Source of the DNA: Pseudomonadota bacterium
Lineage (GTDB): Bacteria; Pseudomonadota; Alphaproteobacteria; Micropepsales; Micropepsaceae
Assembly: GCA_040389405.1 (NCBI GenBank)
Contig: JAZJZY010000002.1
Span: 740,575-804,574, forward strand
Direction of reading: 5' to 3'
DNA length: 64,000 bases
Of the stretch, positions 52,938-57,447 are shown piece by piece. Within the stretch, counting starts at the first letter, position 1; each line of letters begins with the position of its first letter. A program made the translations under genes and the position numbers. The notes under the pieces were generated by a model. That model was given only the letters and a program-made list of their open reading frames with translations, had not been told where the DNA came from and did no database searches.

Positions 52938-53681
52938 CTAACGTGTGTGTACGGCGCTGATCAATCCATCCTGCAGCCAACTGGTCAGCACGGTCGCGAC
53001 GTTCCGCGCCGCCTGGTCGGCATCGCCGTCCTCCACCAAAAGGCTGCACAGATCGGCAAAGCGCGATCCCGCCATCGCCAGGATGAGCGCCCGCCGCTCG
53101 AAACTTTCGATGGTGCGGTATTTCGGGGTCAGATCGCTGCGCCAGATGCGAACCATTGCGGGACCGGCGAGACGCTCGGCGGCCGGCGGCGTATTCTCTT
53201 CCGCCAATGCGCCCCAGATCGCGGCGCTGTTGGTGGCGACTTCGCCCATCACCAAGGTGGGCACGAAAATAAGGACCGCATTGTCCCAATCCACCTGGGC
53301 CAACGCTTCGGGTTTTACGGCGTCCGCGTTGGGCCCCTCGAAAGCACGGCGCAAGCTCCAGTCGAGCCAAGCTAACTCCGGGACCTCCGGATCGTCCGGA
53401 TGCAGGCCGCGCAAAGTCTGGGCGAAATCGGCGCCATATGCACTCAAGGTCCAGCTTTTCGGCACATGGGTTTCGACGTGATGGCGTGCCGCCTTGTCGA
53501 AGGAATCGTCACCCAGCCAGGCCCAGGTTTTTTCATAGGTATCGCGCAGGCTGGCGATGAGCTGCGCACGGTAGGCATGGCGATAGACGGCCAGACCGCG
53601 CTCCGGCGCGCCCTGCAACGGCGCGTCGGTGCCCGTCAGAATGTGGTCGCGAAAACCGCGCTGGGTGTCGAGCAAGTTCAT
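52938..53681 (-). CDS. DUF2063-type RiPP partner protein (BufC/HvfC-like)
   Basis: MNLLDTQRGFRDHILTG...GLAVYRHAYRAQLIASLRDTYEKTWAWLGDDSFDKAARHHV, a DUF2063 N-terminal pattern; ATGA overlap with the DUF692 gene. Confidence 0.75.
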   Translation of the reverse strand: MNLLDTQRGFRDHILTGTDAPLQGAPERGLAVYRHAYRAQLIASLRDTYEKTWAWLGDDSFDKAARHHVETHVPKSWTLSAYGADFAQTLRGLHPDDPEVPELAWLDWSLRRAFEGPNADAVKPEALAQVDWDNAVLIFVPTLVMGEVATNSAAIWGALAEENTPPAAERLAGPAMVRIWRSDLTPKYRTIESFERRALILAMAGSRFADLCSLLVEDGDADQAARNVATVLTSWLQDGLISAVHTR

Positions 53682-54514
53682 GCCGCGCGCGTCCAGTCGC
53701 CGGCTTTCCGGCGCGCCACATCCAGTTCCGCCAGAAGCTCGGCCAGCGGCGGAATATTGTCGTCGCGCTCGATCATGGTCGCGAGCGATCCGAAACGCTC
53801 GCATGCTTTTTTATAAAGCGCCCACACCGGATCGGGCACCGGCTCGTCATGGGTGTCGATCAAAAGTTCGCGGCCCTGGCTATGGCCGGCCAGATGCATC
53901 TGGCGCACGCGATCCACCGGAATGCCCGCCAGATAAGCGTCAGGATCGAAGCCATGATTGGTGCCGCTGACATAGATGTTGTTGACGTCCAGCAGCAGAT
54001 AGCAGCCGGTGCGGCGGCACATTTGCGTAATGAATTCCCATTCCGTCATCTGATCGTCGGCGAAGGTGAGATAAGTGGAGGCATTCTCCATCAATATCGG
54101 ACGCTCCAGCACATCCTGTGCGTGGGCGATGTTGGCGCAGACCAGATCCATCGCCTCTTCGGTGTAAGGCATCGGCAGAAGATCGTGCGAATTGAATCCC
54201 TCCACCCCGGTCCAGCAGAGATGGTCGGACACCCATAAGGGATCGACGCGGTCGGCCAGCACTTTCAGGCGGCGCAGGTAATCCGTCTTGACGCCATCGG
54301 CGGAGCCGATCGACATCGACACGCCATGCATCGCCACGGGATAGCGTTCGCGCACCCGGTCCAGCACATGCAGCGGACGGCCGCCCGGCACCATGAAATT
54401 CTCGGAGATCACTTCGACGAAATCGACCAGATCGCCGCGTTCCAGAAATTCGTTGAAGTGCGGCGGACGCAAGCCGAGACCGAAGCCTTCGAAGACGGGA
54501 ATGGCGGTCATCAA
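53678..54514 (-). CDS. DUF692 multinuclear non-heme iron oxidase (MNIO; BufB-like)
   Basis: GFGLGLRPPHF, VDFVEVISENF, MHGVSMSIGS, WVSDHLCW, LMENASTY, LLLDVNNIYVSGTNHGFD, MHLAGH: the full set of DUF692 TIM-barrel metal-site motifs. Confidence 0.88.
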   Translation of the reverse strand: MMTAIPVFEGFGLGLRPPHFNEFLERGDLVDFVEVISENFMVPGGRPLHVLDRVRERYPVAMHGVSMSIGSADGVKTDYLRRLKVLADRVDPLWVSDHLCWTGVEGFNSHDLLPMPYTEEAMDLVCANIAHAQDVLERPILMENASTYLTFADDQMTEWEFITQMCRRTGCYLLLDVNNIYVSGTNHGFDPDAYLAGIPVDRVRQMHLAGHSQGRELLIDTHDEPVPDPVWALYKKACERFGSLATMIERDDNIPPLAELLAELDVARRKAGDWTRAA

Positions 54515-54533
54515 GCCTTCTCTAAAACGTCAT

Positions 54534-54565
54534 ATGGACCCGGCGCGTTTCGCGACCGGGTCCAT
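54534..54565 (-). promoter_or_regulatory. strong hairpin in the precursor-enzyme spacer (candidate attenuator / processing barrier)
   Basis: ATGGACCCGG-N12-CCGGGTCCAT with a perfect 10-bp stem, followed on the coding strand by GUUUUA. A second 8-bp hairpin lies at 54585-54608. Confidence 0.55.
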
Positions 54566-54622
54566 GGGACTCTACTTCTTTGTCAGCGCGGCAGTCGCCC
54601 GCCGCGCTTATATACAATGTTA

Positions 54623-54877
54623 TTACGGCGTGGTCTTGCCGCCGGCCGTGGTGCAGGCTTCCGCCGACATCGACTTGTAGCCCTGACCCTTGCAGGAATT
54701 CTGGCCCTTGCAGGCATGATTGCCCGACTTGCAGTCCGACTGGCCCTTGCAGGAATTCACGCCGAAGCAGTGAACCGACGCATCCGCAGCGAACGCAACG
54801 GTGGGCGCAGCGGCAACGGCGGCCAGAGCAAGGAAAGCAGCGGCCGAGGCCAGCGTGGCAGATTTGGTGATGTTCAT
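54623..54877 (-). CDS. secreted six-Cys bufferin-like RiPP precursor (DUF2282-related)
   Basis: Sec signal [30 protein letters not shown], then core [54 protein letters not shown]. GGAGA RBS. First gene of the DUF692/DUF2063 operon. Confidence 0.8.
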   Translation of the reverse strand: [84 protein letters not shown]

Positions 54878-54932
54878 GGAAACGTCTCCGTGTTGTTGCG
54901 CCGGCCGATTTTTCGGCTTGGCTATTTCAATG

Positions 54933-54958
54933 TTCGGCGGTCCCGAACCTGGGGTTAC
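54933..54958 (-). promoter_or_regulatory. sigmaF-type ECF promoter of the precursor operon
   Basis: Minus strand reads GTAACC-N16-CGAA exactly, about 55 nt upstream of the precursor ATG. Confidence 0.7.
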
Positions 54959-56005: not shown

Positions 56006-56531
56006 CGACCTGGATCTGGCGTTGTGCCGCGATCATCATGCGCGTGATGCCGCGATGGATATTGACCTTGACCAACGAGACCGACTGGCCGGTCTTTGCC
56101 GAAGCTTCCTCGACGCTGAAGCCATGCATCTTCACCAGCCGGATCACTTCGGATTGTGCCGGCTTCAATTCCGACAAAAGCTTTTCCAGGGTGGTCGCAT
56201 TCTGTATCGCCATGCCGTGATCTTCGACGGCAAGATCCTCGCTGAGGGCCTGGGTGGCGGATTTGCGCAGCGCGCGCAGCCGGTCGATCCATTTGTACCG
56301 CGCGATCGCCACCAGCCAGGGACCGAAGGGGCGAGCCGCATCGTAGGAGCCGCGTTTTTCATGCAAGGCGAACAACGTGTCCTGCACCGCATCGTCCACC
56401 ATTGCGGGCGGCAGGCGCGTTCCGAAATACCGCTTCAGCCAGGGGCGGACTTCATCCAGCAGCCGGCGATAGCGAATGCCATCGCCCTTCTGCGCGGCCG
56501 CCATCAGTCCTGACCATTCCTTATCGGACAT
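55998..56531 (-). CDS. sigF: ECF RNA polymerase sigma factor (SigF/EcfF-like)
   Basis: Sigma70 region 2 (DDAVQDTLFALHEKRGSYD...FGPWLVAIARYKWIDRLR) and region 4 (LKPAQSEVIRLVKMHGFSVEEASAKTGQSVSLVKVNIHRG). The gene symbol is inferred from the NrsF partner and the promoter motif. Confidence 0.8.
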   Translation of the reverse strand: MSDKEWSGLMAAAQKGDGIRYRRLLDEVRPWLKRYFGTRLPPAMVDDAVQDTLFALHEKRGSYDAARPFGPWLVAIARYKWIDRLRALRKSATQALSEDLAVEDHGMAIQNATTLEKLLSELKPAQSEVIRLVKMHGFSVEEASAKTGQSVSLVKVNIHRGITRMMIAAQRQIQVDG

Positions 56532-56543
56532 TGCGTGGCTTTC

Positions 56544-56570
56544 GGCGTTGCCAACTCAGGCGTTGCCAAC
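56544..56570. repeat. tandem 12-nt direct repeat, each containing a GTTG-C-CAAC palindrome
   Basis: GGCGTTGCCAAC-TCA-GGCGTTGCCAAC, 13-39 nt upstream of the sigF ATG. Confidence 0.8.
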
Positions 56571-56668
56571 CTGATCGTTGAAAGTGTGCAACAATGACAG
56601 ACATTCGGCAATCGGACGCCGTCCCGGATGGCGAAAATGCCAAGTTTTTGACAAAATCCGGCCCGTCT

Positions 56669-56694
56669 GTAACCCGATGCAGCCGGGCATCGAA
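56669..56694 (+). promoter_or_regulatory. sigmaF-type ECF promoter of nrsF
   Basis: GTAACC-CGATGCAGCCGGGCAT-CGAA, exact N16 spacing, upstream of all plausible nrsF starts. Confidence 0.7.
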
Positions 56695-56763
56695 AGACCA
56701 ATAGCCGTCGCAGGAACTGTGCGGTGCCAATGTGCCACCTTTAATGGCGTTCCCTCTAACTTC

Positions 56764-57447
56764 GTGACGGCTTTGCAATCATCCGATCCCTCTTCCGGCA
56801 ATTCTTCGGCGCTCGACCTGATGGTCGACCGCCTGGTTGCGGATCTGCGGCCGGTGGAGAGCCCGCCGGTCGCGCGCCGCCTGGCGCTGGGACTGGGCGT
56901 GGGACTTGTCATTTCGCTGGCCTTTGTCGGTATCGTGATGGGTTATCGCCCGGACATGGCGACGGCGACCTTGACCACGATCTTCTGGGTGAAGCTGGCC
57001 TATGTCTCCGGCATCGGGGCGGTTGCGCTCTGGGCGGTGGAGCGATTGGCGCGGCCCGGCGTTCCCACCGGCAATCTGCTTTTGTGGCTGCTGCTTCCCA
57101 CCGTGATGATGGGCGGGTTGGCGGTCTGGCAGCTGATTCACGGCCCGGCCGGTCTGCGCGAGCATCTCATCATGGGCTTCAGCGCCGCTGCCGCGCCGTG
57201 GCGCATTCTTGCCGCCGCATTGCCGCCTCTGGTCGGTCTGGCCTGGGCCGTGCGGGGATTGGCGCCGACACGATTGGTGTTTGCCGGCACGATGGTGGGC
57301 CTGGCGGCCGGTGGTTTTGGCGCGGCGTCTTATGCGATGCATTGCCAGGAATCGGCGGCGCCGTTCCTGCTGATCTGGTACGGGCTGGGCGTGGTCGCAT
57401 GCGGCTTTGTCGGCGCCGTGCTGGGACCGCGCGTCCTGCGCTGGTAG
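56764..57447 (+). CDS. nrsF: DUF1109 anti-sigma-F factor NrsF
   Basis: LDLMVDRLVADLRPVESPP followed by six TM helices, the DUF1109 architecture. Start is GTG 56764 or ATG 56821. ORF-track start 56578 lies upstream of the promoter and is rejected. Confidence 0.78.
   Translation: MTALQSSDPSSGNSSALDLMVDRLVADLRPVESPPVARRLALGLGVGLVISLAFVGIVMGYRPDMATATLTTIFWVKLAYVSGIGAVALWAVERLARPGVPTGNLLLWLLLPTVMMGGLAVWQLIHGPAGLREHLIMGFSAAAAPWRILAAALPPLVGLAWAVRGLAPTRLVFAGTMVGLAAGGFGAASYAMHCQESAAPFLLIWYGLGVVACGFVGAVLGPRVLRW

Follow-up and report, generated by a model that had tools for sequence, protein, structure and literature searches.

What kind of system is encoded at positions 52938-57447 of the 64,000-nt stretch of DNA analyzed here (contig JAZJZY010000002.1, positions 740,575-804,574 of the forward strand; hereafter the window), and which part of it stands out? 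According to the listing of open reading frames (ORFs) and the profile searches, the order of transcription on the minus strand is sigF, coding for an extracytoplasmic function (ECF) sigma factor, an ORF of 325 amino acids for a protein with an HExxH motif, bufA2, bufB and bufC, while nrsF, coding for an anti-sigma factor, lies on the plus strand and is divergent from sigF. The locus is a Buf2-type bufferin operon under the predicted control of sigmaF and NrsF, which is known biology. Bufferins, which are modified peptides that bind copper, make up a very large class that was described recently, and one more Buf2 cluster adds little alone. The bufferin part is ordinary; of interest are an embedded M61-like peptidase with a conserved neighborhood, a rewiring of sigmaF and NrsF, and an NrsF depleted in cysteine, all of which are leads and not demonstrated functions.

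Is the small cysteine-rich protein a bufferin precursor? The gene bufA2 (54623-54877, minus strand) codes for 84 amino acids, made up of a predicted 30-residue signal peptide and a 54-residue core, as had been claimed in the original prediction of a Sec-like N-terminus in front of a six-cysteine core. Its product matches the NCBIfam model NF050166 (BufA2 family periplasmic bufferin-type metallophore) with 102.8 bits at a cutoff of 60, residues 7-82 being aligned to profile positions 2-78 of 79. A Sec signal peptide is suggested by the basic n-region and the hydrophobic core of the N-terminus and by the residues VAFA followed by AD at its presumed end, and homologues align over this region. The cysteines are located at precursor positions 37, 43, 49, 56, 62, and 75. 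A lysine stands directly after C43, C49, C56, and C62, exactly the central four, and not after C37 and C75. The six cysteine columns are conserved across an alignment of 50 BufA2 homologues, which share the layout C-x-G-x-N-x-CKG-x-S-x-CK-x5-CKG-x-N-x-CKG-x-G-[FY]-x7-C. For Buf2 of Caulobacter vibrioides it was reported that the central four cysteines carry a -4 Da modification, and that cysteines I and VI remain available to form a disulfide (PMC11626156).

The gene bufA2 is followed by a 108-nt spacer, by bufB and, via a 4-nt overlap, by bufC. BufB (53678-54514, minus strand) is a multinuclear non-heme iron oxidase (MNIO/DUF692) of 277-278 amino acids, with the ATG at 54511 as likely start. 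It reaches 373.6 bits against PF05114 and 386.6 bits against NF050167 (MNIO family bufferin maturase; cutoff 310), and in the NCBIfam profile search the models for HvfB, ApyH, MbnB, and ChrH all gave scores below their own cutoffs. The protein is 78% identical to the characterized CC_2906 of C. vibrioides (BufB2; P0350) over 95% of its length, and the PDB sequence 3bww was matched with E=2e-45. Since the profile match is full-length and high-scoring, a loss of iron ligands is unlikely. Asp252 of BufB, located in the sequence ERDDN, aligns with the Phe of ERDFN in 3bww, an enzyme of the Lys-Cys class. An Asp at this site has been described as a hallmark of Cys-Lys-class MNIOs, contacting the substrate Lys, and it is a Phe in FonB (2026 study, PMC13097082).

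BufC (52938-53681, minus strand), a protein of 247 amino acids, is the DUF2063-type partner of the MNIO enzyme and matches PF09836 (DUF2063) with residues 6-88 (70.7 bits, cutoff 27.2). Its start codon overlaps the stop codon of bufB as ATGA, which was read directly from the sequence. The NCBIfam model HvfC is matched weakly (20 bits, cutoff 142), no match was found among the PDB sequences, and the C-terminal half has neither a Pfam nor a PDB sequence match. By tblastn, BufC is 55% identical to the product of the C. vibrioides gene downstream of CC_2906 (locus L085; sampled loci are cited here by such numbers). The MNIO gene behind the precursor gene and the DUF2063-like gene overlapping it by 4 nt had both been predicted and were recovered as described, and the profile searches suggested together with that prediction place BufA2, BufB, and the DUF2063 protein above the curated cutoffs.

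Which modification BufB installs on BufA2 is a matter of debate for related enzymes. Oxazolone-thioamide pairs, i.e., a methanobactin-like chemistry, could be formed in place of 5-thiooxazoles, as the two products are equal in mass and both were proposed for closely related MNIOs; conflicting product assignments were published, among others in PMC11252979. Later spectroscopy and labeling assigned 5-thiooxazoles to bufferins and revised the oxazolin (PMC13097082; bioRxiv 10.64898/2025.12.15.693703), so that oxazolone-thioamide pairs are very unlikely here, although the sequence of the locus does not discriminate between the two products.

Is the operon controlled by sigmaF? The sigma factor (55998-56531, minus strand; 177 amino acids; domains Sigma70_r2 and Sigma70_r4_2) scores 65.6 bits against TIGR02937 (cutoff 42.9) and is 67% identical to the sigma factor encoded in one operon with nrsF in Caulobacter sp. 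S45 (L003). NrsF, a DUF1109 anti-sigmaF factor with six transmembrane segments, scores 204.7 bits against PF06532 (cutoff 26.8). The binding sequence of sigmaF is GTAACC-N16-CGAA (Kohler et al., 2012; PMC3511200). When both strands of the window were searched, this sequence was found exactly twice, with 0.07 matches expected, and both copies have the fitting place and strand. The first one (54933-54958, minus strand) precedes the ATG of bufA2 by 55 nt and is the sigmaF-type promoter motif of bufA2BC, the second one (56669-56694, plus strand) is that of nrsF. Allowing one mismatch added only two sites in the window, both far away. Across 1.14 Mb of related loci, 112 exact copies of the motif were counted, typically before bufA2, or before bufB, nrsF, or sigF; it was found 45-65 nt upstream of bufA2 in at least 14 of these loci, and the element on the nrsF side is kept as GTAACC or GTAACT in L001, L002, L081, and L082. 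With the family models passed and the motifs placed in this way, the predicted physical connection of a Buf2-like six-cysteine member to a sigmaF/NrsF module is supported. In C. vibrioides, buf1 and buf2 are members of the SigF regulon and are induced by copper (PMC11626156).

The arrangement of the regulatory genes differs from what had been expected. The ECF sigma factor gene and the DUF1109 gene are both present in the predicted region, but the former does not directly precede the precursor gene, as the 325-amino-acid ORF lies in between, and nrsF is not part of a co-directional unit, as it is located on the plus strand and divergent from sigF. In the window, a distance of about 240 nt separates the two genes, which do not form one operon, being on opposite strands there as well as in L001, L002, L081, L082, and L088. 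The divergent control region between them (56532-56668) is well conserved in an alignment of five relatives, including the block GATTGCCGA...GTCATTGTTGCA. On the minus strand of this region no sigmaF motif facing sigF was found, neither exact nor with one mismatch, and the four closest relatives have none either; a match to the sigma-70 consensus was likewise not found in the sigF/nrsF region. As judged from the motifs, the targets of sigmaF in this clade therefore appear to be the bufferin operon and the gene of its inhibitor, and not its own gene. A candidate promoter with two mismatches, GCAACG-N16-CGAA just before the sigF ATG, was rejected because it lies inside a 28-nt insertion which is absent from three relatives. 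The same insertion holds the direct repeat GTTGGCAACGCC, present in two copies at 56544-56570 immediately upstream of the sigF ATG; the insertion is present only in the window and, in a diverged form, in L001, and is absent in L002, L081, and L082.

The start of nrsF was examined by conservation. The ORF extends over 56578-57447 on the plus strand, and the true start is probably the conserved TTG at 56773, which results in a protein of about 224 amino acids (56773-57447), as nucleotide and amino acid conservation extends upstream of the usual ATG. Alternative starts are GTG at 56764 and ATG at 56821. A conserved block of 30 nt upstream of the called start was also considered as an RNA element; the better explanation is that it forms the true 5′ end of the coding region, beginning with TTG and encoding MQSSDP.

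Several observations weigh against the proposed control by sigmaF and NrsF. The Caulobacter crescentus SigF was not among the best 120 matches of the homologue search with the sigma factor, and neither the sigmaF search (up to one mismatch) nor the sigma-70 consensus search yielded a promoter for sigF. NrsF reaches only 114.9 bits against the NCBIfam equivalog NF042994 (AntiSigF_NrsF), whose cutoff is 300. Furthermore, the first conserved cysteine of NrsF, which is present in 23 of 26 homologues, is an alanine in the window, L001, and L002, whereas the second one is retained (HC motif, AMHCQE). According to the work on C. crescentus in PMC3511200, substituting either of the conserved cysteines (C131, C181) impairs the ability of NrsF to hold the regulon at its basal level. 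Because one cysteine is missing and the score is below the NF042994 cutoff, the sensing mechanism of this NrsF may differ. The clade is thus a natural variant of the sigmaF circuit and could help to show how ECF16 anti-sigma factors sense metal.

How unusual is the close linkage of regulator and target? It had been put forward as a special feature of this locus, and turned out to be less exceptional than that. Two samples of loci were used. For the peptidase-centered sample, species-representative genomes were taken for the best 80 of more than 592 matches of the HExxH protein and searched with the six proteins of the window; 53 of these loci are fully flanked, i.e., by at least 5 kb on both sides. 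The control sample consists of seven loci chosen via BufB2 homologues. Genes were counted within 8 kb, and bufB was called Buf2-type at 55% identity or more. In four of the seven control loci, sigF and/or nrsF are located within this distance of Buf2 genes, and many of the peptidase-centered loci have sigF, nrsF, and bufA2BC in a row. Section 14 of a published survey states that sigma factor and NrsF genes occur in Buf1 and not in Buf2 clusters (PMC12452194), which probably reflects how its authors delimited the clusters. The presence of these genes beside Buf2 clusters in many genomes qualifies this generalization as worded in that section. An adjacency of sigma and NrsF genes to Buf2 is not rare; specific for the clade of the window are the split, divergent sigF and nrsF genes and the peptidase gene downstream of sigF.

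What is the protein encoded between sigF and bufA2? The gene (55028-56005, minus strand), absent from the original account of the locus, codes for a secreted zinc-peptidase-like protein of 325 amino acids. There is an 8-nt overlap between its ORF and the sigF stop codon; with the second ATG (55987) as start, the gene would instead begin 10 nt behind this codon. The protein has a signal-like N-terminus, no cysteine, and the motif HEMTH. There are thousands of homologues, which form 3,263 clusters at 50% identity and are all annotated as hypothetical. In the Pfam search no family was assigned, and M61 was found at E of about 0.1 in three of 17 homologues. In NCBIfam only flagellinolysin was matched (E=0.005, far below the cutoff), a profile search of the PDB sequences gave no match, and neither did a tblastn search against 72,556 plasmids. 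Since the sequence searches gave nothing, the protein could be placed only through structure prediction.

An AlphaFold2 model built from an alignment of 68 sequences has a mean predicted local distance difference test (pLDDT) value of 90.1 and a predicted template modeling (pTM) score of 0.85. In a Foldseek search with this model, M61 aminopeptidases were the best matches, with 7xyo first (E=8.5e-8, TM-score 0.54), 8j9c and 4fgm, followed by M1 enzymes. Altogether 98 PDB matches at E<=1e-3 were obtained, and those listed all belong to the M61 or M1 family. H142, E143, H146, E161 (in WLQEG, corresponding to the motif WLxEG), and Y213 are invariant in all 68 homologues of the alignment. Neither a PDZ domain, as in M61, nor the M1 motif GxMEN was found in the protein. 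It is best described as a separate M61-like family with a gluzincin arrangement. An identity with CC2748 of C. crescentus, a known member of the sigmaF regulon, was considered and rejected, because CC2748 is a molybdoenzyme of the YedY/MsrP type. Many homologues of the HExxH family (e.g., P0137, P0138, P0160, and P0167) are longer, with 450-520 amino acids, and have a lipoprotein-like N-terminus; these long forms carry an additional N-terminal domain of about 190 residues without a Pfam match.

Does this peptidase belong to the bufferin module, or is it only a passenger? In 30 of the 53 fully flanked loci, a Buf2-type bufB gene was found within 8 kb of the peptidase gene, and 36 of the 53 contain at least one of the buf, sigF, and nrsF genes or have a sigmaF motif upstream. 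Most of the sampled genomes thus have a member of this family of secreted M61-like zinc peptidases, for which no Pfam model exists, next to a Buf2 cluster or a sigmaF element. Across Alpha- and Gammaproteobacteria, the proximity to bufB is kept through no fewer than six different gene orders. The order of the window, nrsF divergent from sigF-HExxH-bufA2BC, recurs in L001, L002, L081, L082/83, and L088 and is kept down to a peptidase identity of about 62-72%. In Dyella, bufCBA2 is divergent from the HExxH gene, in L032 bufA2BC is directly followed by it, and L076 has nrsF followed by the HExxH gene. In Bradyrhizobium and relatives, the order is bufA2-bufA2-bufB-bufC-creatininase-HExxH, with 4-nt overlaps at both junctions. 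In Sphingomonas, a sigmaF motif is followed by a gene for a secreted thioredoxin and then the HExxH gene, and in several loci the peptidase gene or the thioredoxin-peptidase pair is directly preceded by a sigmaF motif.

It could be assumed that the HExxH gene is an unrelated passenger, coding for a general periplasmic peptidase in stress islands, and that the locus is an ordinary sigmaF-Buf2 module. The connection to bufferins is one of genomic context, and the survey cited above reports, in its section 14, that the proportions at which additional conserved genes accompany bufferin clusters are very low (PMC12452194). Two counts point in the same direction and count against a dedicated role of the peptidase: in 17 of the 53 fully flanked loci, neither a sigmaF motif nor any of the buf, sigF, and nrsF genes is present within 8 kb, and in the control sample the peptidase is present in just one of the seven BufB2-centered loci, being missing from the other six. 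Likewise, C. vibrioides makes a functional Buf2 without a peptidase homologue near buf2 (L085). However, co-location within 8 kb reaches 57%, where less than 1% would be expected if a genome has one or two copies of bufB, a value which is our estimate and not a computed control, and the proximity survives the changes in gene order listed above across both classes. In addition, the start/stop overlaps of 4 nt put the peptidase, translationally coupled, inside the buf2 operon of Bradyrhizobium, and sigmaF motifs precede it in several genera. A passenger is hence rated as rather doubtful. As the peptidase occurs in one of seven control loci and in none near the C. vibrioides buf2 genes, it is to be regarded as an accessory of a subset of the clusters and not as a core maturation factor.

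A second explanation is suggested by the position of the gene behind sigF. The HExxH protein could be part of the signaling path, either as a periplasmic protease that cleaves NrsF or as a periplasmic ligand of NrsF, and thereby release sigmaF in the manner of the site-1 proteases of other ECF systems. This would account for its co-transcription with the sigma factor gene, to which it is translationally linked in the clade of the window, and the peptidase gene is found directly beside nrsF or sigF in L003, L007, L010, L023, L076, and L084. How ECF16 sigma factors become activated is, as reported in PMC6180224, not known, and an NrsF lacking one functional cysteine would fit a shift in the mechanism of release. 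On the other hand, C. crescentus and most other sigmaF/NrsF systems work without the peptidase (L085, L087, L089, and L091), and Bradyrhizobium and Dyella have it together with bufA2BC, with no sigF or nrsF nearby. Furthermore, a separate sigmaF-type promoter belongs to the peptidase gene in Sphingomonas, Caulobacter sp. S45 and others, which marks it as a member of the regulon and not as an upstream activator. A role in signaling is for these reasons considered unlikely.

Tentatively, the peptidase may be a dedicated accessory of Buf2/sigmaF modules which acts directly on the periplasmic bufferin, trimming, releasing, or turning over the copper-loaded form, or alternatively on NrsF, and together with the cysteine-depleted and separately transcribed NrsF it would constitute a rewired sigmaF circuit. 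In a limited search of the bufferin and MNIO literature no description of a connection between such a peptidase and bufferins was found. The processing or turnover of such peptides after export is an open point in the literature, which was raised for the related EGKCG peptides (PMC13097082), and the peptidase is a candidate for it.

Some of the loci sampled show further arrangements of their own. The operon of Bradyrhizobium lablabi (L053, 4589-8933) contains bufA2 in tandem and a creatininase gene (PF02633, 166.6 bits) and has no sigmaF motif; the same layout was found in L048, L062, L066, L070, L074, L077, and L080. The creatininase family presumably includes the mycofactocin peptidase MftE, and if this is right, the Bradyrhizobium operon carries two candidate tailoring hydrolases. 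In Sphingomonas locus L025 (6821-7999), the HExxH gene comes after genes for a secreted DUF1223 protein with a CxxC motif and for a secreted thioredoxin, and a sigmaF motif is located before the thioredoxin gene, which hints at periplasmic thiol-redox functions in the sigmaF regulon of Sphingomonas. Five loci of Sphingomonas and Sphingobium (L025, L029, L036, L039, and L065) show nrsF, a sigmaF motif, and bufB-bufC with no precursor in between (e.g., L025, 2205-3849), and a stand-alone bufA2 with a sigmaF motif of its own about 9 kb away, beside a Buf1-type MNIO gene (e.g., L025, 12266-12409). Here, the Buf2 precursor and its enzymes appear to be uncoupled into separate sigmaF-dependent units.

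Two RNA hairpins were predicted by folding in the spacer between bufA2 and bufB, at 54585-54608 and 54529-54570 (span 54529-54608, minus strand). The spacer has a minimum free energy of -51.9 kcal/mol (z = -4.76), and none of 200 shuffled sequences folds as well. A strong hairpin of different sequence is found at the same position in L001, L081, L082, L003 (Caulobacter sp. S45), and L053 (Bradyrhizobium), and an Rfam search of positions 52000-58500 identified no known RNA family. By analogy to other operons for modified peptides, in which such devices are common, the hairpins may set the stoichiometry of precursor and enzymes; they could also act as an attenuator or as an element of transcript stability.

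How would the parts work together? Taken as a whole, it is highly probable that the locus is a metal-stress module around a Buf2-type bufferin, for which the following course can be proposed. At rest, the membrane protein NrsF would hold the ECF sigma factor, which is of the sigmaF type and of group ECF16. Metal or oxidant stress in the periplasm, in the model organism caused by copper and also by chromate and cadmium, would set sigmaF free and direct RNA polymerase to the two GTAACC-N16-CGAA promoters of bufA2-bufB-bufC and of nrsF, the latter providing a negative feedback. In the cytoplasm, BufB and BufC would turn C43, C49, C56, and C62 of BufA2 into 5-thiooxazoles, with the conserved hairpins probably raising the ratio of precursor to enzyme. 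The modified BufA2 would then be exported by the Sec system and lose its 30-residue signal peptide, C37 and C75 would form a disulfide, and the product of about 54 residues would chelate periplasmic copper. The gene sigF, having no sigmaF promoter, would be transcribed together with that of the secreted M61/M1-like zinc peptidase, a putative periplasmic accessory of the same stress response which might trim or turn over the bufferin, or clear metal-damaged proteins of the periplasm. Of this scheme, the identities and order of the genes, the motifs of the promoters, and the predicted fold and conserved surroundings of the peptidase come from the analysis itself, and the induction, the chemistry on BufA2, the metal specificity, the role of the hairpins, and the peptidase substrate are inferred.

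The flanks of the locus look unrelated to this function, with a chorismate-mutase-type gene, a carboxylesterase gene, and an AI-2E transporter gene (57493-58551, minus strand). The gene for a chorismate-mutase/isochorismate-lyase-like protein (52620-52931, plus strand; PF01817, 62.2 bits) converges with bufC on the minus strand, the stop codons being separated by 6 nt (52931-52938), and this neighbor of bufC is also present in L081 and L082. The peptidase is identical to a protein encoded in a Pseudomonadota metagenome-assembled genome. The nearest named relatives in the homologue searches are Rhizomicrobium, and in a Rhizomicrobium metagenome-assembled genome (L081) the synteny takes in the AI-2E transporter, chorismate mutase, and carboxylesterase genes. 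A tRNA-Arg(ACG) gene is located about 2.5 kb past nrsF (59944-60020, minus strand); there is no sign of an island boundary, and the synteny with the Rhizomicrobium genome spans the locus. A second buf cluster or a paralogue of any of the six genes was not found elsewhere in the window.

How does the locus compare with known systems? Putative HExxH metalloproteins encoded beside MNIO genes have been named adjamnio-III in section 17 of PMC12452194, where they are described as 11 sequences with 3-4 cysteines, located directly before MNIO-nitroreductase fusions in clusters without a precursor. The peptidase of the window shares with them the motif and the position beside an MNIO gene, but it has no cysteine, comes from a family with over 3,000 clusters at 50% identity and accompanies ordinary Buf2 clusters. 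Going by that section, an identity with adjamnio-III was rejected on the basis of cysteine content, partner enzyme, and family size. The M61 glycyl and M1 aminopeptidases (7xyo, 8j9c, 4fgm, IRAP/ERAP, and EryP 7v9o) resemble the model in the predicted fold of the catalytic domain, at a TM-score of about 0.5, and the window family has in common with these gluzincins the HExxH motif, the Glu of WLxEG as third ligand, and an invariant Tyr. It differs from them by an identity of 13-16% in the structural alignments, by a much smaller, secreted protein of about 290 mature residues, and by the distance of the Glu from the second His, which is 15 residues compared to 19 in M61 and M1.

The regulators are closest to the pair sigF-nrsF of C. 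crescentus (CC3253-CC3252), which was assigned to group ECF16 (PMC6180224). An ECF sigma factor, a DUF1109 anti-sigma factor with six transmembrane segments, and targets with GTAACC-N16-CGAA are common to both. In C. crescentus, sigF and nrsF form one operon behind a sigmaF-type promoter and are weakly autoregulated (PMC3511200), whereas in the window nrsF is a separate divergent unit with a sigmaF motif of its own, and the sigma factor gene has no recognizable one. The NrsF of C. crescentus has C131 and C181, and that of the window an alanine at the position equivalent to C131.

Finally, the bufferin genes correspond to buf2 of C. vibrioides (bufA2-bufB2-bufC2, CCNA_03001-02999 / CC_2907-2905), which consists of the same three genes in the same order and, like the window, has no DoxX gene. 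The identities are 78% for BufB, 60% for BufA2, and 55% for BufC (BufA2 and BufC by tblastn), and both precursors have six cysteines and are preceded by a sigmaF-type promoter, with a Sec signal peptide that is predicted in the case of the window. The regulators are split and divergent in the window, with a sigmaF motif at nrsF but not at sigF. No HExxH peptidase gene is found near buf2 of C. vibrioides (L085), and the C. vibrioides buf2 genes lie far from sigF-nrsF, which adjoin buf1 (PMC11626156), whereas in the window the regulatory genes are adjacent to buf2, and the peptidase gene follows sigF.

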